Below, piece by piece: positions 3,067-62,515 of a stretch of DNA of 64,000 nucleotides. Source of the DNA: Escherichia phage vB_EcoM_FB; the sequence record MT682711.1. One strand, given 5' to 3'. The notes beneath the pieces were generated by a model. It did not search any database. It saw only the letters and a program-made list of their open reading frames with translations, and was not told the origin of the DNA. The stretch's first letter is position 1, and the number at the start of each line of letters is the position of its first letter. Made by a program: the position numbers and the translations under genes.

Positions 3067-4887
3067 TTACGACATCCAGGCCTTACGGAGTTGAGGGTCA
3101 TTACCAAGGAGCATTTCGAACTGTTCTTTCCAATCTTCAGGTAATTGAACAACATCAAATTTAGGGTCTTGAATCATTCGGCGGTATTCAGCTTTCTCAA
3201 GAGAACCTAGTCCTTTGATATACCGAATAGAATGTTTTGGTAGAGAGTCCTTAGCTTTGGTATAACTAGGAACATCATAGAACCATTCCTGTTCTTTACC
3301 AACCTGAGCAATAATCACCGGAGTTTTACAGAACCGTACTCGGCCTTGTTTGAACAATTCAGGCCATTGGCTAAAGAAGGCTAGCAATGATGGATAAATC
3401 GAACCAGTACCATCCACATCGGCATCAGTCATGATAGCAATATTACGATAGTTGGTTTTCTCTGCAGGTTCACCAATAACTAGTCCAGTGATTGCACAGA
3501 TATCAAATAGTTCTTTGTTCTTCATGATATCAACTGCAGGCATACCCCAGGTATTCATAACCTTACCACGTAATGGATAACCACCTTGAAGGTCTTTATT
3601 ACGGACTTCAATGAATGGACCCATAGCTGAATCGCCTTCGGTCAGGAACAATGTGGTATCAGCATCTTTACCATACATATTCGCCTTGATGTGCTTATGA
3701 ACCTTAGCTTTCAAAGCTTTCTTAGCGGCTTTAGTTTCAGCTGCCTTTTCGGCTGCTAATTTACGTGCTAAAGCAGCTTCGATAATGGGCATCAATACTG
3801 CTTCAGAATTAAGAATGCTTTTGGCCAACTTTTTAGTATCTAACTGAATATGACTACGGATTTCGCCATAAGGGCTAGTCAAACGCTCTTTAGTCTGGGA
3901 ATCAAAACGAAGGTTTTTCATTCCACGGACAAACATCAACATAGTTAGACATTCTTTAACTCGAGCCTTAGTTACTTCGATTTTATATTTCTTTTTAATA
4001 GCTGGAATCAATTCATCACACATATCATCCATTACGCATTCAATGTGATGGCCACCATTTTTAGTATGAATATTGTTCACATAAGTTAAATGACGGAATC
4101 CGTCAGGGCTTCGACCGATTGCAATAGAGCATGTTTCTTGTTCTTGAGTTACAACTTCTTCATCAAACTGCTTAGCATATTTTTTAAACTGGCCTTGAAC
4201 CTTTTTACCATTAAATTTAAATTCTATGTCGGGATAAACCACTGACAAGGTTTGCAAACGGTCTAAAGTAACATCTAAATAGATTTGGTCAAAAGCTGAC
4301 ATTTCAAAGTGGGTAAAATCTGGAATAAATTCAACCTTTGTTCCATTGGCTTTAGATGCTTTGGTTTTCCAAGAAACGTTATCAGCATTATTAGAACAAT
4401 TTACTGATAGCTCATTTTTGCCATCTGAAGTTACACCCGTAAACAACGTAGAGAAAATATTTGTTAAGCTCGAGCCTACACCGTTTTGGCCGCCCGTGAC
4501 CCGTTCTTTATCGTCGCCAAAGTTACCACCTGCCATAGTCTTGGTCCAGGCAGCCACAGGTCCTGGGATTTCTTCACCTTCAGGAGTGATAACCATAGCC
4601 TGCGGAATGCCACGACCATTATCTTCTACAGTAACTTTATTAGTTTTTAAATCAATACCAACTGAGATTTTATTTGCAAATTTAAAATTGGTACGAATGG
4701 CTTCATCAACAGAGTTATCAATGATTTCATCTACTAATTTGAGAACACCTGCAACATAACGAATTTTTTTAAATTCACCAAAGAGAAAACGTTCATGGTC
4801 CTCGAATGATACACTTCCTATGTACATTCCAGGGCGTTTAATAACGTGTTCTTTAATACTAAGCATTTCAATTTTATTATCAATCAT
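3067..4887 (-). CDS. 39: DNA topoisomerase II large subunit (GyrB-like ATPase), single fused 39+60-type polypeptide
   Basis: 606 aa; GHKL motifs IIDNSVDEA and EDNGRGIP; TOPRIM-like C-terminal region; T4 map position. Confidence 0.9.
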   Translation of the reverse strand: MIDNKIEMLSIKEHVIKRPGMYIGSVSFEDHERFLFGEFKKIRYVAGVLKLVDEIIDNSVDEAIRTNFKFANKISVGIDLKTNKVTVEDNGRGIPQAMVITPEGEEIPGPVAAWTKTMAGGNFGDDKERVTGGQNGVGSSLTNIFSTLFTGVTSDGKNELSVNCSNNADNVSWKTKASKANGTKVEFIPDFTHFEMSAFDQIYLDVTLDRLQTLSVVYPDIEFKFNGKKVQGQFKKYAKQFDEEVVTQEQETCSIAIGRSPDGFRHLTYVNNIHTKNGGHHIECVMDDMCDELIPAIKKKYKIEVTKARVKECLTMLMFVRGMKNLRFDSQTKERLTSPYGEIRSHIQLDTKKLAKSILNSEAVLMPIIEAALARKLAAEKAAETKAAKKALKAKVHKHIKANMYGKDADTTLFLTEGDSAMGPFIEVRNKDLQGGYPLRGKVMNTWGMPAVDIMKNKELFDICAITGLVIGEPAEKTNYRNIAIMTDADVDGTGSIYPSLLAFFSQWPELFKQGRVRFCKTPVIIAQVGKEQEWFYDVPSYTKAKDSLPKHSIRYIKGLGSLEKAEYRRMIQDPKFDVVQLPEDWKEQFEMLLGNDPQLRKAWMS

Positions 4888-14495: not shown

Positions 14496-14503
14496 TATTT
14501 ATA
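14496..14503 (-). promoter_or_regulatory. late promoter TATAAATA
   Basis: rc of tatttata at 14496-14503, about 30 nt upstream of soc ATG. Confidence 0.65.
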
Positions 14504-16344: not shown

Positions 16345-16382
16345 TATTTTTCCTTGGGCTCTAAATTAATAGAGCCATTATA

Positions 16383-16544
16383 TCATTCGTTTTCGGATTT
16401 TTCTTTACGCTTTTTAGATGGGATTTGTTCAGGCCCTTTGTTGACGACCGCGCCTGAGGTAGTTCCGGAGGCAATATTAGATGGGTTACCACCTGCATCG
16501 CCTGCGACCATATCTTCGTTCATAACTTCTTTAAAAGATTTCAT
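16383..16544 (-). CDS. hypothetical small protein
   Basis: 53 aa ORF translated by hand (MKSFKEVMNEDMVAGD...); CAGGAG SD. Confidence 0.4.
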   Translation of the reverse strand: MKSFKEVMNEDMVAGDAGGNPSNIASGTTSGAVVNKGPEQIPSKKRKEKSENE

Positions 16545-16557
16545 AGGCTCCTGGCCT

Positions 16558-16565
16558 TATTTATA
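16558..16565 (-). promoter_or_regulatory. late promoter-like TATAAATA
   Basis: rc of tatttata at 16558-16565. Confidence 0.4.
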
Positions 16566-16770
16566 TTACGAAAATAGCTTTATCACCATTCGCATCAGTG
16601 ACTTCATAGGTATCTTCATGATACAGTGGGATAATCCAAGTCACACCATCACCGGCAATAATATGGATAGCTTCTTGGTCCTTTGATACGATTTCATACT
16701 CTTCGAATAATTCGAATACAGAAATCTTAGAGCCCGTACACATTGCACTCATATTGTTCCCTTCTCTCAA
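16561..16770 (-). CDS. hypothetical protein
   Basis: 69 aa ORF. Confidence 0.45.
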   Translation of the reverse strand: MREGNNMSAMCTGSKISVFELFEEYEIVSKDQEAIHIIAGDGVTWIIPLYHEDTYEVTDANGDKAIFVI

Positions 16771-30812: not shown

Positions 30813-31762
30813 TGGAGCTCCAGAGCAAGTTGGATGAACAGATAAGTCATGTGAATTTCTGGGTTAGCCGCAATACCGTGGTATTGGTTATTTTCACCGA
30901 CAATTTCATACATTCTAACAATGCTTGGCCCAGGCAATTTACCATAGAGTTCGTTAGCCAGCGCCATAATAAAGTTGGAATAGTCATTGACATGGCGTGG
31001 AGCTAATGCACGGAGTTCTTTAAAGTTTTTATCTTTAAGTGCAGCCACTACTTCATCAATAGGCGAATTGGTATTCATTACAATACTCAAAATGCCTGTA
31101 TCGATTTTACCACTGGATGAGTAACGGTCTAGTTGGTTAACTGTTTTACGGAAGTCAGGAAAGTTTTGTTTAACTAAGGCAGCAATAACTTTAAGGTCTT
31201 CGACTTCGATATTTTCGTTTTTACAGATTGCTACAGCACGATGAATCATTTCTTTCATCATGGATGTTTGGTCGGCCGGAGTGGCTTCACCAAATTTAAT
31301 AACACGACAACGGGATTGAAGTGGACCGATAATACCATCAATATTGTTTGCTGTAATAATTACAGAACAGTTTGAGGAATAGGCTTCTAAGAACGAACGA
31401 AGGTGACGTTGAGCTTCAGCAACACCGGCGCGGTCGAATTCGTCGATAACAATTACCTTACGCTTACCTTCGATAGATTTGGAAGATGCAAAACGAGTAA
31501 GTTCATTACGAACGAAATCAATACGGCAGTCAGAACCGTTAACAAACAACATGTCTGAATTTGTATCAGCACACAATGCTTTAGCTACGGTAGTTTTACC
31601 TGTGCCTGGTGAAGCAGAGACTAGGATAATGTTAGGGATTAGGCCCTTATTAACAATGGCTTGGAGGGTTTCTTTATCATGCGCAGGCAGAATACACTCA
31701 GATAAAGTACCTGGACGATATTTCTGTTCCCACATGAATTCATTATTGTTTACTGTAAGCAT
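30803..31762 (-). CDS. 44: clamp loader ATPase subunit (AAA+)
   Basis: 319 aa (same as T4 gp44); Walker A SPGTGKTT, Walker B VIVIDEFD. Confidence 0.9.
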   Translation of the reverse strand: MLTVNNNEFMWEQKYRPGTLSECILPAHDKETLQAIVNKGLIPNIILVSASPGTGKTTVAKALCADTNSDMLFVNGSDCRIDFVRNELTRFASSKSIEGKRKVIVIDEFDRAGVAEAQRHLRSFLEAYSSNCSVIITANNIDGIIGPLQSRCRVIKFGEATPADQTSMMKEMIHRAVAICKNENIEVEDLKVIAALVKQNFPDFRKTVNQLDRYSSSGKIDTGILSIVMNTNSPIDEVVAALKDKNFKELRALAPRHVNDYSNFIMALANELYGKLPGPSIVRMYEIVGENNQYHGIAANPEIHMTYLFIQLALELQWL

Positions 31763-31799
31763 ATTAATTCCCTCAGGTTTGTTTTACATTATACTCCAA

Positions 31800-31816
31800 G
31801 GGAGGAATTTCCTCCC
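31800..31816 (-). promoter_or_regulatory. perfect palindromic hairpin in the 45-44 intergenic region
   Basis: gggaggaatttcctccc at 31800-31816, between gp45 stop and gp44 SD; no U tract. Confidence 0.45.
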
Positions 31817-31822
31817 TATGCT

Positions 31823-32521
31823 TTAGAACGAGTGGCTTGAGCCTGCTTCCATAGCCAATACATAAGAAGCTTGTGAACCTTCAAACTTGGCTGCGAAACG
31901 AGCGTCCTGGCCTTCACCACGGGCCCATAACAATACATGGTAATCGGCAGGCATCATTTTCATATTAGTTTTGTTGATAATGAATTTGAATTCAGGGCCA
32001 TCATGGTCTGCAACCACTAAGGAATACAATGGACGGGCCAGGTCCTTATCATCAACTTGTTTGTAGCCATTGATTACAATTTTACCATTGTCTACAGTAA
32101 TAGCAAATGTATCAATACTCAGTCCAGAGGACACACGCATCAACTGCTGGTAATCTTCGGCTTTAAGGTCAAAAATAACTTCAGCCACCGGGAACGGAAT
32201 AGCTTTGCTTGGGAATGCAATTGTGCTTGGGTCGGCAATAGGCCACTTAATAGTTGAACGTTGGTCTTTAATAATTAAAGTGGTTTGGTCTTCACTTACC
32301 GAAACTTCAGCACTTTCAGATACCAATGACAGAATACTTAAGAAGCCGTTCAGGTCGTAGATTGCGGCTTCGATATCAAAGGTGTCATTTACAGTAGCTT
32401 CACCATAACTTGCACCCGTTACTGAACGAGTTAGAATAGTGTTACCAGGTTTAAGCATGATACCTGGGTTAATACCGGAGAAGTTTTTCAGAATGTTCAG
32501 AGTTTCTTTAGAGAATTTCAT
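31823..32521 (-). CDS. 45: sliding clamp
   Basis: 232 aa; clear similarity along its length to T4 gp45 as recalled (e.g. LLWA.G...AKFEG). Confidence 0.9.
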   Translation of the reverse strand: MKFSKETLNILKNFSGINPGIMLKPGNTILTRSVTGASYGEATVNDTFDIEAAIYDLNGFLSILSLVSESAEVSVSEDQTTLIIKDQRSTIKWPIADPSTIAFPSKAIPFPVAEVIFDLKAEDYQQLMRVSSGLSIDTFAITVDNGKIVINGYKQVDDKDLARPLYSLVVADHDGPEFKFIINKTNMKMMPADYHVLLWARGEGQDARFAAKFEGSQASYVLAMEAGSSHSF

Positions 32522-32549
32522 AATGTTTCCTTATCAAGTCAAAAATTAA

Positions 32550-33005
32550 TTAAGCAATAACGATCATTTGTTTACGAATGGATTCAGGCAGAGATTCAAT
32601 ATACTCTGGAATCTGGGAAGCAACAATAGCACCAGCTTCAAGCAGTTGTTCGTCAAAATCTACACAATAATCATCTTCGAGACGTTCAGAACCATCACGG
32701 TCGATAACCAGTTTAGCACCTGCGGCCAGTGAATCATTATAGTGGCGACGCATAATTTCTACCCACTTATCGGATACGTCGTTATCAATGATACCGTAGA
32801 GCATGAACTTAGTTTCTTGTGGAAGAGACTGCAGACGACGTGCAGAGTCGGTATCAATATTCAGTACCCATGATTTACGGATACGGTTTTGATTATGTGG
32901 GTTGGAATCAGTACGAATGGTTTTAACTTGGATATCTTTAACAGTAATAGCGTTAGCAAACATAATATTTTCTCTCATTTGGTTGGTAGATGTATTATAA
33001 ATCAA
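32550..33005 (-). CDS. hypothetical protein (rpbA position; true start probably an internal ATG near 32963-32978)
   Basis: Track ORF begins with TTG; internal ATGs follow. Confidence 0.5.
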   Translation of the reverse strand: MIYNTSTNQMRENIMFANAITVKDIQVKTIRTDSNPHNQNRIRKSWVLNIDTDSARRLQSLPQETKFMLYGIIDNDVSDKWVEIMRRHYNDSLAAGAKLVIDRDGSERLEDDYCVDFDEQLLEAGAIVASQIPEYIESLPESIRKQMIVIA

Positions 33006-33023
33006 TATTTTAAAGCACTTAAT

Positions 33024-33218
33024 TTAATCAAAGTATTCATAAACGAACCAGGCAGGATTCCTGTTCGACATGATTCTATCATACTCTGACTTAAAAGCAT
33101 TTCGGAGATAATCTTCAGTAACAAGATGTTCGTCTCCAGAGAAGTTATTAACTAAAACATACCGCTTTAGTTCAGGAACGGCCAACAAATGCTGGCCTGT
33201 TATAAAATTAGAAGCCAT
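33024..33218 (-). CDS. hypothetical protein
   Basis: 64 aa ORF. Confidence 0.45.
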   Translation of the reverse strand: MASNFITGQHLLAVPELKRYVLVNNFSGDEHLVTEDYLRNAFKSEYDRIMSNRNPAWFVYEYFD

Positions 33219-33225
33219 ATAAATA
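33218..33225 (+). promoter_or_regulatory. late promoter TATAAATA on plus strand
   Basis: tataaata at 33218-33225, 37 nt upstream of the HNH gene ATG. Confidence 0.55.
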
Positions 33226-33261
33226 TCTTTATCGGTCGCTGTATCAAATAAGGATTTGATA

Positions 33262-33978
33262 ATGAATTATAAATCAATATACGAAAAGCTTATTCAACGA
33301 GCAGTTAATAGAAATTTAACTACCTATAAAGAACGTCATCACATTATACCACAATGTATGGGTGGAACGGATGACGCTTTAAACTTGGTAGACTTAACAC
33401 CTGAAGAACATTACTTGGCTCATCAGTTGTTAGTTAAAATCCATCCAGATAATGTATCACTAGTCTATGCGGCAAGAATGATGACAATTAGCTCACCAAA
33501 TGCTGATAGGTCTAAAAATAAATTATTTGGATGGCTTCGTCGTAAGAATTCAGAAGTCCAAAAGGATAAAGAATTCTCGGAAGAAACCAGAAAGAAAATG
33601 TCGATTTCTGCTTTAAAAAAGCCTAGAGTTACCTGTCCACACTGTGGTAAAACCGGTTTGGTAGGCAATATGAACAGATGGCATTTTGATAATTGTCCTA
33701 AAGGCCCTAATAAAGTGGTTCATACTATACCAAAAGAACAAAAAGATAAAATATCAAACACTTTTAAGAATAAAGTATTTGAATTGGTTAATTGCCAGTT
33801 TTGTGGTATAGAAGGTAAGAAGAGCGTTATAGTAACCCATCAATATTTTTGCAAATTAAACCCTAACCGTAAAAAGAAAGAGGACCCTAAAATAAAGTGT
33901 CCTCATTGCGATAAAGTAGGAATACCTGCCAATATGAAACGTTGGCATTTTGATAATTGCAAATTAAAGCCTCAATAA
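33262..33978 (+). mobile_element. free-standing HNH homing endonuclease gene with C-terminal zinc-ribbon repeats
   Basis: ERHHIIPQCMGG...NLV.L...EHYLAH HNH motif; three repeats of CPHC.K.G...NM.RWHFDNC; only plus-strand gene in the replication cluster, inserted between 46 and the rpbA-position gene. Confidence 0.7.
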
Positions 33979-33983
33979 GAGGC

Positions 33984-35666
33984 TTATTCCAATACAGTAA
34001 ATCTACCGACCTTCTTCATTTGAAGGTGTTGTCCATACGATTGAGGGTCATGGTCCTTATGAGAAATTATAAAGATATTAGAATCTTCCAAAGAATTTAT
34101 AATATTAGATACACCTTTAATACCCTCTGCATCAAAACTTCCATCAAAAACTTCATCTAAAATTAAAGTGCTTATATGTATTCCCGAGACTCGAGAAGCA
34201 ATATCACGCCATGTAAACAATAAAGCCACATCTATTCTAGACTTTTCACCTTCACTAAATGAAGCATAACTAAAGTCTTCACGTCCACGTGATTTAATCG
34301 TCTCGTTGAATTCTTCGTCTAGGGTAAAGACGTAGTCAGCTTCCATAATCTTCAAATAAGAATTTATCTGCTTATTAAAGATAGGAATGTATTTCTTAAT
34401 AATGGAACCTTTAATACCAGTATCCTTCAACATTTCTGTCAGAATTCCACGATGATATTTTTCCATTACTAAGGACGATTTGGTAGAGACGATTTTATCA
34501 AGCTCTGCTTGAAGCGCGGCAATCTCTTCGGCATTACTTACGAACTCAGCAGCTGCTTGGTCGATTAATACTTTAACTTTTTTAGCTTTCTCTACGGCAG
34601 TAATGGCTTGTTGCTTATGAGTAGCTATCTGAGATTTAATAGCCAGCGCTTTATTACGTTGTTCGGTTACTTGGTCCTTAATGAGCTTGAGTTCTTGGTA
34701 CTGCTCATTAATCTTATCCAAAGATTTTTGAAGTTCAAAGTTCTTATCCTTAATTTTAGTAAGGATGTTTCCATGCTCTTCCAATCCTTGCATACACGTA
34801 GGGCAGTGGCCGCCTGTTTCGTATAATTTCACAACCTTAGTAAAGGTTGCCATATCATTCTTGATTGCAAATCCTTTATTGCTCAGGTCACTCATAGAGT
34901 CGCTAGGGTCATCACCAACGATGACATTGAGTAATTCATCAGTCAGGTTTTCTATATTGCCCTTCGCAGTCCTGGCTTCTTTAACTAGCTCGTCATACAT
35001 TACTTGTAGACGTGCTGCGTTCTCACCGGATAATTTACGCTGACGTTCTTCGTTGTCATTATAAATTTTAATCTGTTGGGTAATAGAATCCTGTTTAACG
35101 TCGATTACTTGGATTTGGCTATTAGTCTCACGAATCAAAGATTTGTTCAACTTATCCATATCCGCTAATACAGAAACCTCTAAGAGGTCTTCCACAAGCT
35201 TTCGGCGCGCAGGGGTCGACAAACCCATGAAAGGGGTATACCCTGCTGTACCAAGTACGACAATCTGTTTGAAACTGGTATATGACATTCCGATAAGCTG
35301 TTCAAATTCTGCTTGGAAGTCTTTACTGCTGGCAGATTCATCAAGACGTTCACCGCCACAAGAGATTTCAAAAATATTGGGTTTTTGCCCGCGCTTGATA
35401 TAGTATTCTTTGCCATCATATTCCATCCACAGTTCGACCAAAAGGTCTTTCTTATTACTTGAGTTAATCAACTGCCCTTTCTTAACATCACGAAAAGGCT
35501 TACCGAACAGAGCAAATGTAACGGCTTCAAGGAACGTAGATTTCCCAGCGCCATTTTTACCGGTGACTAAGGTCTTTTGGACCTTATCAAGTTGGATTGT
35601 AATAGATTGCTGACCTACCGACATAATATTTTTATACGTTACTTTCTTTAACTTAAACGTTTTCAT
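33984..35666 (-). CDS. 46: recombination ATPase (Rad50/SbcC-like)
   Basis: 560 aa (same as T4 gp46); Walker A GKNGAGKST; coiled-coil middle with CPTC zinc hook; C-terminal ILDEVFD. Confidence 0.9.
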   Translation of the reverse strand: MKTFKLKKVTYKNIMSVGQQSITIQLDKVQKTLVTGKNGAGKSTFLEAVTFALFGKPFRDVKKGQLINSSNKKDLLVELWMEYDGKEYYIKRGQKPNIFEISCGGERLDESASSKDFQAEFEQLIGMSYTSFKQIVVLGTAGYTPFMGLSTPARRKLVEDLLEVSVLADMDKLNKSLIRETNSQIQVIDVKQDSITQQIKIYNDNEERQRKLSGENAARLQVMYDELVKEARTAKGNIENLTDELLNVIVGDDPSDSMSDLSNKGFAIKNDMATFTKVVKLYETGGHCPTCMQGLEEHGNILTKIKDKNFELQKSLDKINEQYQELKLIKDQVTEQRNKALAIKSQIATHKQQAITAVEKAKKVKVLIDQAAAEFVSNAEEIAALQAELDKIVSTKSSLVMEKYHRGILTEMLKDTGIKGSIIKKYIPIFNKQINSYLKIMEADYVFTLDEEFNETIKSRGREDFSYASFSEGEKSRIDVALLFTWRDIASRVSGIHISTLILDEVFDGSFDAEGIKGVSNIINSLEDSNIFIISHKDHDPQSYGQHLQMKKVGRFTVLE

Positions 35667-35887
35667 GTATTGTTCTCACGAATTGTTTGTTCAGCATATT
35701 CTAGCATTTCTTCGGAAGAAGCAAACACGTCGTCAAGTTCCATGGCCCATGAAACACCTTCAGAATATTCAGAAGTGACATACATAGTTCCGGTATACCA
35801 AGAACCATCCACGTCCCATTCTACATTACCGAACCAGCCATCGCCAATATGAAAATCATGTTTATACATTTTCATCATTATAAGCAT
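35663..35887 (-). CDS. hypothetical protein
   Basis: 74 aa ORF between 47 and 46. Confidence 0.5.
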   Translation of the reverse strand: MLIMMKMYKHDFHIGDGWFGNVEWDVDGSWYTGTMYVTSEYSEGVSWAMELDDVFASSEEMLEYAEQTIRENNT

Positions 35888-36125
35888 CCTTGATGCATGA
35901 TTCAGCCATATGAATTAATGTTTCTGGAGTATCATCTACCATTACATTAAAGCTAAATTCCACAGCCCAATCAGTAGCAACATAAACTTTAATAAGCTCG
36001 TTGGTATCGCGAGTGCTCACGGCTTCAAACCAGAACTTAATGATATTCGTTTGGTTATCGTCATCAATAACGATGCAGTCGTGTTCTAGTTCAAGGCCTG
36101 ATTTTTTGAATTCATCTAAAGTCAT
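35862..36125 (-). CDS. hypothetical protein
   Basis: 87 aa ORF between 47 and 46. Confidence 0.5.
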   Translation of the reverse strand: MTLDEFKKSGLELEHDCIVIDDDNQTNIIKFWFEAVSTRDTNELIKVYVATDWAVEFSFNVMVDDTPETLIHMAESCIKDAYNDENV

Positions 36126-37144
36126 CGTGTAACCTCATTATAAAGTTGTGCGGCCATAGTCTTAAGGGCTTTAACATCGTCTTCAGTGTGGCCATCAGGA
36201 AGGGCATCGATATAATCATACATCATATCCAAGAGGGACTTAACTTCATCTTCCTCTTCAGAATCATCGATATCAACACTGTTATCTACCTTAGACACAA
36301 TACGTAAAGAGTGAACAACCTTTTCAAGTTCAGATTCGAACTTGGTAAGCCCGTCATCAATTTTATCGACTATAACACGAACCGCAATATTTGTAAAATC
36401 TTTGTAATCGATAGTCGCATTCGGATAATGAATCTTACGATGCCAACAAGTTTCATTGATGATGAAATCCATTTTATGGGTTTCTGTATCGAAAATCCAG
36501 AAGCCACGAGGGTCGTTCTCATCACCTGCAGTCAGGGTCCATGGCGTACCAATATACTTGACGTTTGCTGCATCAGAAATGGTGTGGAAGTGACCAGACC
36601 ATACTTGCTTATACTTCTTAAGGAAATCAGGTTCTAAACCATGTGATTTCATTCCTTTATAGAAATAGAAACCATTTAATTCCCAGTGGCCAATACAGAA
36701 ATCGGCAGTAGTATTTTTGATATGGTCCATGATATCGGTCGTGTTTTCTTCACACATCCATGGAATCAAATCAATTTCTGTACCATCAAAATTAACCGTA
36801 GTAGGTTTCTCAATAACCTTGATATGGTCGTATTTACCCAGAACTTCAGAAGCAGCGTTCGGAGTCAATGTGTTTTTGTAGTGCATATCATGGTTACCAA
36901 CGACCGTATACATGGTAATGCCGTTGGCTTTAAGCAAATCGGAGATTTCGCGAGCGAATTCCATACACTTATGGGTAATTGCTTTACGAACGTCAAAGAT
37001 ATCACCGTATTGAATCCATACAGTAATGCCATTTGCTTTAGAATAATTAATAGCGTCTTGGATACCTTGACGTTGGATATTTTGTACCCACACATCATCG
37101 GCCTTCACTCCAAGGTGCCAGTCACCTGTGTTTAATATTTTCAT
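36122..37144 (-). CDS. 47: recombination nuclease (Mre11/SbcD-like)
   Basis: Phosphoesterase motifs GDWHLG, GDIFD, GNHD; start set to ATG at 37144 (MKILNTGDW), giving 340 aa versus 339 in T4. Confidence 0.9.
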   Translation of the reverse strand: MKILNTGDWHLGVKADDVWVQNIQRQGIQDAINYSKANGITVWIQYGDIFDVRKAITHKCMEFAREISDLLKANGITMYTVVGNHDMHYKNTLTPNAASEVLGKYDHIKVIEKPTTVNFDGTEIDLIPWMCEENTTDIMDHIKNTTADFCIGHWELNGFYFYKGMKSHGLEPDFLKKYKQVWSGHFHTISDAANVKYIGTPWTLTAGDENDPRGFWIFDTETHKMDFIINETCWHRKIHYPNATIDYKDFTNIAVRVIVDKIDDGLTKFESELEKVVHSLRIVSKVDNSVDIDDSEEEDEVKSLLDMMYDYIDALPDGHTEDDVKALKTMAAQLYNEVTR

Positions 37145-53025: not shown

Positions 53026-53283
53026 TCATCTCATGCTCCTGTGCCAACAATTACGTGGCTCACGTTTAAAAATTTCATCATGCATTGATTGACAACCAAC
53101 ACAATATATCACACCCTTGATAGCTTTACGTCGTGCTTCAGGAATCTCTTCATCGCAATCAAAGCAATATTCAGCGGATTCACGTTCAATAGCCACTTGC
53201 TTACGAGCGTGTACAATAGCGGCTTGTACAACCGCTTCCATTTCGAGCTGTTCGGCTCCGTCCTTTGCAAAACCGACAGCCAT
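53026..53283 (-). CDS. TraR/DksA-family C4 zinc-finger protein
   Basis: 85 aa; CFDC-x17-CVGC with EIPEARRKAI between the Cys pairs. Confidence 0.6.
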   Translation of the reverse strand: MAVGFAKDGAEQLEMEAVVQAAIVHARKQVAIERESAEYCFDCDEEIPEARRKAIKGVIYCVGCQSMHDEIFKREPRNCWHRSMR

Positions 53284-53465
53284 TATGCTTTCAACTCATT
53301 AAGATACTCAACCAAGGCTGCTTTAGAGTTAGCCAAATCTCGTTTACATTGCTCTATTCCGGAATATGAATAGCCTTCACAATGTTCTACTGCAATATCA
53401 TAAGAATCACGTTCAATAGCAGTAGCGAGTTTAAGGATTTGTTCAATCTGTTCAGTAGTTAACAT
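53283..53465 (-). CDS. hypothetical protein
   Basis: 60 aa ORF. Confidence 0.45.
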   Translation of the reverse strand: MLTTEQIEQILKLATAIERDSYDIAVEHCEGYSYSGIEQCKRDLANSKAALVEYLNELKA

Positions 53466-54556: not shown

Positions 54557-54564
54557 TATTTATA
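54557..54564 (-). promoter_or_regulatory. late promoter-like TATAAATA
   Basis: rc of tatttata at 54557-54564; about 90 nt from the next start, so weak. Confidence 0.3.
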
Positions 54565-62507: not shown

Positions 62508-62515
62508 TATTTATA
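62508..62515 (-). promoter_or_regulatory. late promoter TATAAATA followed by anti-SD hairpin
   Basis: rc of tatttata at 62508-62515; tacctcc (62489-62495) / ggaggta (62503-62509) inverted repeat covers the SD. Confidence 0.65.

Follow-up and report, generated by a model that had tools for sequence, protein, structure and literature searches.

A probable Mob-type HNH homing endonuclease cassette with a mosaic DNA-binding end between genes 46 and 45.2 of a Dhakavirus

We examined a 64,000-nucleotide (nt) stretch of the genome of Escherichia phage vB_EcoM_FB (MT682711.1; hereafter the window), a member of the Dhakavirus group of JS98-like T4-type coliphages, in which a single plus-strand gene interrupts the minus-strand block that runs from gene 46 to gene 45. 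The segment at 33218-33983 very probably constitutes a self-contained mobile cassette, made up of a late-promoter box, a leader, a gene for a 238-amino-acid Mob-type HNH homing endonuclease and a terminal stem-loop. Seven observations carry this finding: homology to known endonucleases, conserved catalytic residues, presence/absence polymorphism among relatives, exact insertion junctions, a heterologous flank, a mosaic gene structure and conservation of the promoter box. The open reading frame (ORF) was originally listed as 33256..33978 (+), opening with TTG; the start is likely the ATG at 33262, which lies 7 nt behind an AAGGA at 33250-33254 and gives an ORF of 238 codons plus stop (33262-33978, +), equal in length to the annotated orthologous genes of phages Bp7 and KIT01. 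The window gene is thus a new allele of a known and already annotated free-standing HNH homing endonuclease gene of the Mob type.

The insert is placed precisely between gene 46 and gene 45.2, and involves no intron or intein. In phages WG01 and JS98, the same two genes overlap by the four nucleotides ATGA, with nothing between them. Within Dhakavirus, the site is empty in WG01, QL01, JS98, JS10, IME08 and many others, and occupied in Bp7, KIT01, MX01, IME281 and 04086; within Tequatrovirus, approximately 60 of roughly 500 records are occupied, while T4, T2 and T6 are empty. The same site, with the same opposite orientation, is also used in Mosigvirus a20, Gaprivervirus DK-13, a Klebsiella phage and metagenome contigs. 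The first-pass annotation, made from the letters alone, had read the gene as that of a mobile, free-standing HNH endonuclease, placed within the 46-45 block but on the other strand, and had proposed comparing the 45-46 region across relatives; that comparison returned many empty alleles, and homology together with presence/absence among relatives bears the reading out. Opposite-strand placement is a minority arrangement in the family (both neighbors on the other strand at 11 of 76 loci), with segD as a precedent in T4 (PMC2988022). In T4 itself, a 55-nt spacer with its own inverted repeat (AGAGATTAT...ATAATCTCT; positions 888-942 of locus L009) lies between genes 45.2 and 46 in place of the Dhakavirus ATGA overlap; it has no homology to the cassette, which ruled it out as a cassette scar.

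Alignment with WG01 resolved both junctions. Heterology begins at 33209, and pure insertion extends to 33983, one base short of the gene 46 stop codon; the insert measures 765 base pairs (bp). The insertion altered the first codons of gene 45.2 (MASNF vs MSDF) and left this gene without its ATGA coupling to gene 46, a cost to the host genome. On the 45.2 side (31300-33208), identity to WG01 is 98-100% per 100-nt bin, reaching 100% over 32550-33208. On the other side, the last ~90 codons of gene 46 (33984-34258, −) are heterologous, with 55-80% identity per bin and 68% overall, beyond which (34259-36650) identity returns to mostly 94-100% (96.2% over 34259-35000; one bin 89%). This 275-nt tract differs from WG01 in 47 codons synonymously and in 20 non-synonymously, and it spans the Walker B and His-loop of the Rad50-like protein. 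Segment BLAST placed its nearest relatives in UGJNEcP3 (85.8%) and T4 (79.6%), ahead of WG01 (68%). A divergent tract occurs at the same place when Bp7 and KIT01 are compared with WG01, and when RB32 is compared with T4. We therefore treat 33984-34258 as a putative co-conversion tract and resistant target allele: the flank heterology would fit intronless homing with co-conversion, and the flanks look like a recent invasion of a WG01-like background. Such a pattern is known from SegG and MobE, where flanking DNA is co-converted and polymorphisms shield the carrier genome (PMC2790892, PMC2988022). In Bp7 (HQ829472, locus L001, 2839-4339), the annotation splits gene 46 into two or three parts, and the 3′ tract of the gene falls 4 nt short of that in relatives, which would be either a frameshift beside the endonuclease gene or a sequencing error.

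The same alignments bear on the view that the locus carried the gene ancestrally and that relatives lost it by deletion, with the gene 46 divergence being ordinary mosaicism unrelated to the endonuclease. T4-like genomes are indeed highly mosaic, and among phage records no match covers window positions 21001-46000 throughout (best ~96-98% identity at 87-94% coverage, none above ~98% identity at 88% coverage over these 25 kilobases (kb)), so that the source is a new mosaic Dhakavirus that resembles WG01 only locally around the cassette; moreover, the nearest relatives of the gene 46 tract are not those of the endonuclease gene. Nevertheless, the empty sites of Dhakavirus consist of a clean, scarless 4-nt coupling overlap, which independent deletions would not regenerate; a divergent gene 46 tract adjoins the insert in three lineages (window/WG01, Bp7-KIT01/WG01 and RB32/T4); and, in Dhakavirus and RB32 alike, the cassette begins on its left at its own promoter box. 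We hence regard ancestral presence followed by loss as very improbable.

The encoded protein matches the PHROG family phrog_655, 'homing endonuclease' (E 2.6e-66), and has 4065 relatives in a large protein database, many of them with Pfam NUMOD3. T4 MobE aligns with residues 1-116 at 47% identity (BLASTP, 120 columns, E 5e-31), full-length identity to RB32 ORF054w (annotated 'similar to mobB'), which has the same three C-terminal modules, is 61%, and the same-site relatives in Bp7 and KIT01 already carry the annotation 'homing endonuclease'. The best GenBank phage protein match reached 81.5%, and a 99% match was found solely on an 841-bp ENA contig. Homology, an intergenic site with presence/absence variation and flank heterology together assign the gene, at the level of sequence, to the Mob type.

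The HNH motif proposed in the first-pass annotation (HHIIPQCMGG...EHYLAH) was recovered in both its parts, at residues 26-35 and 49-54. These fall within a predicted catalytic core at residues 24-54 (33331-33423, +; E-x-HH-IIP...GG-D...N-L...H-x3-H), delimited by invariant residues and profile matches, in which E24, H26, H27, P30, G35, N41, H50 and H54 are invariant in 63 homologues. Searched against solved structures, the family profile matched the McrA HNH domain over residues 21-50 (E 6.8e-4) as well as Cas8-HNH, a group II maturase and the IscB HNH; a single-protein sequence search of the same structures returned nothing meaningful, and the HNH domains were reached by the family profile only. 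An AlphaFold model built from 63 sequences (mean predicted local distance difference test score (pLDDT) 92) showed a nuclease core of the beta-beta-alpha type (strands 24-27 and 42-45, then helix 47-60), which a helical linker joins to three helix/beta-hairpin/helix repeats. The H...N...H order on a modeled beta-beta-alpha core points to membership of the HNH (beta-beta-alpha-metal) superfamily, and the protein may act as a nuclease, either by nicking or by double-strand cutting.

Given that the AT-rich window holds many spurious plus-strand ORFs of 90-170 amino acids, we also weighed whether this ORF could be due to chance or to an antisense annotation artefact. No minus-strand gene overlaps it, however, and its 4065 homologues, confident model, good ribosome-binding site and conserved catalytic residues effectively refute that idea, to which we assign a vanishingly small probability. 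It is the sole plus-strand ORF of at least 90 amino acids in the window that has a family match and lies outside longer minus-strand ORFs. The others are contained within a longer minus-strand ORF, except for those at 16354-16686 and 53089-53373, which both overlap small minus-strand ORFs and gave no PHROG match; the initial description of the gene as the only sizeable one on the plus strand therefore stands.

C-terminal to the nuclease domain, the protein carries three Cys-rich modules, all with the ligand spacing C-x2-C-x11/12-H-x3-C. The ligands are C125, C128, H141 and C145 in predicted finger 1 (33628-33696, +), C178, C181, H193 and C197 in predicted finger 2 (33787-33852, +), and C213, C216, H229 and C233 in predicted finger 3 (33892-33960, +), the assignments being based on motif and structure prediction and, for finger 1, explicitly on invariant ligands and a beta-beta-alpha prediction with pLDDT above 90. 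Across 19 three-finger homologues, with identities as low as 38%, none of the 12 metal ligands varies. The three repeats of CPHC.K.G...NM.RWHFDNC originally described hold for the first and the third (residues 125-145 and 213-233), but not for the middle one (residues 178-197, CQFCGIEGKKSVIVTHQYFC), which retains only the C-x2-C...H-x3-C ligand skeleton. The middle finger of more distant relatives with three fingers has kept CPHC...RWHFDNC, and the three modules are therefore duplicates, of which the middle one diverged in this clade. Both of our structural models place each CxxC on a beta-hairpin that precedes an alpha-helix, and the second ligand pair (H-x3-C) at the end of that helix (134-144, 187-196 and 222-232), with finger pLDDT of about 90. 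The predicted topology is hence that of beta-beta-alpha C2HC fingers and not that of two beta-hairpin knuckles, which speaks against the earlier label of zinc ribbons; weak Pfam zinc-ribbon matches span just the first CxxC knuckle (e.g., residues 118-131). The top Foldseek matches in PDB were all finger arrays (TRAF6, Cep104, CTCF and the RNF125 C2HC), at E-values of 0.012-0.1 and none at or below 1e-3. Taken as models, these results suggest classical-type beta-beta-alpha zinc fingers of a C2HC variant, which would presumably bind zinc.

Finger number varies across the family. Of the 120 top homologues, 71 are single-fingered, 14 carry two fingers and 32 carry three, with one homologue each having none, four and five. 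Most of the more distant relatives have one finger, whereas three fingers are present in RB32 and in all 28 of the closest database homologues, so that the triple array, previously called unusual, is a clade hallmark and not a peculiarity of the window. The fingers are accompanied by NUMOD3-like segments. The first (SEETRKKMSISALKK; 33574-33618, +) is modeled as a helix at residues 107-119, and the segments of the window protein that align with NUMOD3 (SEETRKKMS and PKEQKDKIS) are both predicted helices; NUMOD3 (PF07460) itself matches 36 of the 63 aligned homologues, with a best E-value of 1.7e-29.

This DNA-binding end is where the window allele departs from its relatives. The promoter, HNH domain and finger 1 (33219-33716, +) are 96.8% identical to Bp7 in DNA, while the remainder (33717-33983, +), comprising NUMOD3-like helix 2, fingers 2-3 and the terminal hairpin, has no full-length match above ~76% nucleotide identity. 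At the protein level, residues 1-152 share 97-100% identity with the Bp7 type, as opposed to 52% for residues 153-238, which are closer to the metagenomic homologue P0003 (73%). Judging from this break, the window allele is a recombinant in which fingers 2-3 were exchanged. A donor search with 33700-34300 against 50,697 phage records found none above 75% over the full length (the gene 46 tract alone reached up to 87%), and metagenome contigs that bear P0003 or P0005 were no closer in DNA to either the swapped segment or the gene 46 tract.

At the very same 46|45.2 junction, phages UGJNEcP3, UGJNEcP4 and UP19 carry a different endonuclease gene, encoded on the strand of its neighbors. In UGJNEcP3 (OV876907, locus L010), this gene spans 1708-2391 (−) and combines a GIY-YIG-like N-terminus with NUMOD3 and one C2HC finger. 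Its product matches phrog_314 'homing endonuclease' (E 2.7e-50) and, in Pfam, only NUMOD3 (E 8e-8), and we read its nuclease domain, from sequence, as probably GIY-YIG-like. Its finger shares 67% protein identity with window finger 3 and, on the opposite strand, 78% DNA identity. The gene 46 tract next to it is more closely related to the window tract (~86-87%) than any other. With a homologous finger in both the HNH and the GIY-YIG genes, two nuclease families that use one site have DNA-binding modules in common. NUMOD-type endonucleases are in principle known to shuffle modules, and this locus offers a neat local example. A tentative extension, which we consider rather doubtful, is that 46|45.2 is a landing site contested by the unrelated HNH and GIY-YIG families, which sit on opposite strands and share swappable C2HC fingers; the window allele, its fingers 2-3 exchanged and its gene 46 tract taken over from the GIY-YIG lineage, would represent a retargeting or immunity step; if true, the three-finger array would be a modular, swappable DNA-recognition code and a phage counterpart of eukaryotic C2H2 arrays.

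At its left edge, the cassette opens with TATAAATA at 33218-33225 (+). This box reproduces the T4 late-promoter -10 consensus exactly and overlaps the gene 45.2 start codon on the other strand. The last base of the box lies 37 nt upstream of the A of the ATG, in agreement with the position first given for it, and the box is the sole plus-strand copy in the 64 kb. It is conserved at -41 to -53 in Bp7, KIT01, RB32 and a20; DK-13 has a version with one mismatch (CATAAATA), and Klebsiella phage phi1_146002 showed no exact match. Among 80 distant homologue loci in IMG/VR, the exact box occurs within 100 nt upstream in 11, compared to ~0.55 expected (~20-fold), and it clusters at -26 to -49. Four further exact boxes lie on the minus strand (14496-14503, 16558-16565, 54557-54564 and 62508-62515), in a mostly early-gene region, and are candidate late promoters for minus-strand genes.

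The 5′ leader (33226-33261, +) holds an element, TATC..GTCGCTGTATCAAATAAGG, together with the Shine-Dalgarno AAGGA, that is conserved across four genera. In the form TATC..G.TGCTGTATCAAA(T)AAGG, it is kept in Dhakavirus, RB32, a20 and DK-13, in which the coding regions are just 60-75% identical, and a role as operator or as RNA element is conceivable. The element was also considered as an I-TevI-style target mimic and rejected, since its best match in WG01 (14/20, at the gene 46 stretch VFDSATD) was non-significant by shuffling (p ~0.06). Folding of the leader revealed no significant RNA structure (z = +0.48) and no hairpin that sequesters the ribosome-binding site. Hairpins of that kind are found in I-TevI and in Aeh1 mobE. 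No sigma-70-like or MotA-type promoter was detected on the antisense strand inside 33219-33983. Antisense-embedded promoters occur in segG and mobB. MotA-box-like matches to middle promoters on the minus strand lie beyond the cassette, at 33078-33099 inside gene 45.2 and at 32994-33017 just upstream of rpbA, and the MotA-like promoter matches for rpbA and gene 45 are located downstream of the insert. In the window as a whole, we counted the pattern TGCTT-N11-13-TAnnnT 20 times, compared to an expectation of 11. With no plus-strand upstream source of early transcripts and no inhibitory leader hairpin, late-only expression from the TATAAATA box would be the simplest reading.

At the other end lies a stem-loop at 33967-33985 (AAGCCTC-AATAA-GAGGCTT, a 7-bp stem with a folding free energy of -10.5 kcal/mol, z -3.3) that spans the stop codons of both the endonuclease gene (in the loop) and gene 46. 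It is identical in a20 and DK-13, RB32 has a different hairpin there, and empty-site alleles lack the stem-loop. It does not resemble an intrinsic terminator, as its plus-strand tail (AUUCCAAU) has no U-tract and a terminator scan made no call; the minus-strand tail (UUUAAUUUG) is only partly U-rich. Without a plus-strand U-tract, a role for the stem-loop as a barrier between the convergent transcripts is a matter of conjecture.

By analogy with T4 MobE, SegG and I-HmuI, we infer the mechanism of homing, the position of the target and the late timing as follows. Late in a mixed infection, the protein would bind the DNA of a relative that lacks the gene, by means of its NUMOD3-like helices and three C2HC fingers, upon which the tethered N-terminal HNH domain would nick or cut either close to where genes 46 and 45.2 meet or within the 3′ end of gene 46. 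T4-type recombinational repair of the broken genome would then bring in the cassette together with neighboring donor DNA, and the recoded 275-bp end of gene 46 would represent the co-converted flank, which probably also carries a cleavage-resistant form of the target.

MobE is the Mob protein with in vivo evidence of nicking and mobility; it nicks T2 nrdB near its own insertion site, with polymorphisms in the host genome protecting the carrier (PMC2790892). It shares with the window protein a homologous HNH domain and the first NUMOD3-like helix, and its gene is likewise free-standing between conserved genes (nrdA and nrdB; PMC2790892), with flanking polymorphisms that mark carriers and non-carriers. 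In contrast to the window gene, which is oppositely oriented and has its own TATAAATA box, mobE is promoterless and co-oriented with its neighbors (PMC2790892), and its 141-amino-acid product has none of the three zinc fingers. T4 Mob proteins have been described as an HNH domain plus a C-terminal zinc finger (PMC10448857). RB32 ORF054w and the genes annotated as 'homing endonuclease' or 'mob-like endonuclease' in Bp7, KIT01, MX01, IME281, a20 and DK-13 are orthologues at the 45.2|46 site in the opposite orientation, and share with the window gene the 238-amino-acid three-finger architecture, the promoter box and, in most cases, the same terminal hairpin, whereas the recombinant 3′ segment and a different gene 46 3′ tract set the window allele apart. 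The Seg-like GIY-YIG gene of the UGJNEcP3 type shares the junction, NUMOD3, a C-terminal C2HC finger and a related gene 46 tract, but differs in its nuclease domain, in having one finger instead of three and in being co-oriented with its neighbors. I-HmuI (PMC2790892) and other NUMOD-module enzymes, which are modular HNH or GIY-YIG proteins with the catalytic domain tethered to a long DNA-binding region, have a similar layout of an N-terminal nuclease followed by small DNA-binding modules; unlike them, the window HNH core aligns with McrA/Cas-type HNH domains, and I-HmuI gave no sequence match in PDB searches. The C-terminal module of I-HmuI is a helix-turn-helix, while those of the window protein are Cys2-His-Cys fingers.

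Several results weigh against a mobile cassette with an active HNH homing endonuclease. The window protein itself falls below the Pfam HNH cut-offs (PF01844, E 0.14, 12.8 bits vs 21.4; HNH_5, E 0.13) and has no NUMOD3 match in Pfam even at E up to 1, although PF01844 does match 37 of the 63 aligned homologues at E ≤0.01 (best 3.1e-6). The promoter box is not enriched in the window (5 found vs 7.0 expected), so that where the box lies and its conservation in relatives, rather than how often it occurs, make it significant. Since Dhakavirus donors and recipients are near-identical on the 45.2 side, co-conversion there is invisible, and the apparent asymmetry of the flanks says nothing about where the cut lies. 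Among nine sequences (three empty, five HNH-occupied and, for reference, the GIY-YIG-carrying UGJNEcP3 allele), all occupied and all empty alleles could not be told apart cleanly by any position in gene 46. For the gene 46 tract, the closest counterpart is found in the GIY-YIG-carrying phages, and the tract may have arrived in a separate event. Lastly, a literature search found no paper on cleavage, nicking or inheritance for this orthologue.

One could envisage that the gene is a homologue that is no longer an active homing element, being either a passenger or reused for phage exclusion, as an autorepressor or regulator, or in defense of the site against its GIY-YIG rival. T4 offers defective or uncharacterized endonuclease genes (I-TevIII is defective, and the activity of mobA is listed as not determined; PMC2988022), the leader sequence that is conserved across genera could be an operator, and a rival endonuclease gene does occupy the same site. 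We nonetheless judge an inactive or reused homologue unlikely, as the ORF is intact, homologues with as little as 38% identity keep every HNH residue and each of the 12 metal ligands, and a patchy distribution with a very recent-looking insertion into a WG01-like background is what active mobility predicts.

For genome annotation, the question is settled in that the gene can be labeled a Mob-type homing endonuclease, the same label as in close relatives; what goes beyond routine is only the mosaic DNA-binding end and the possible competition of HNH and GIY-YIG genes for one site. Over the ~5 kb compared, the window phage and WG01 are near-isogenic and differ mainly by the cassette and its 275-bp flank, so the pair provides a ready system for mapping the target site of a Mob-family enzyme, which is hard even for MobE. 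The natural finger-swap alleles (window vs Bp7 type) could further test C2HC fingers as determinants of specificity, and the locus could show HNH and GIY-YIG endonucleases competing for one site in an essential recombination gene.

As for the surroundings of the cassette, the gene products are ordered gp44, gp45, RpbA, gp45.2, insert, gp46, 46.1, 46.2 and gp47. Gene 45.2 (33024-33218, −) matches phrog_1045 (E 3e-30), and gene 46 (33984-35666, −), which is convergent with the endonuclease gene, encodes the Rad50/SbcC-like recombination nuclease subunit according to the ORF list and the annotations of relatives. Gene 46.1, which the window shares with WG01 and JS98, is missing from KIT01 (positions 4356-4369 of locus L004 vs 35663-35887 of the window). 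A number of further Dhakaviruses returned 74% coverage in three pieces in our search, which may reflect the same insertion/deletion at 46.1.

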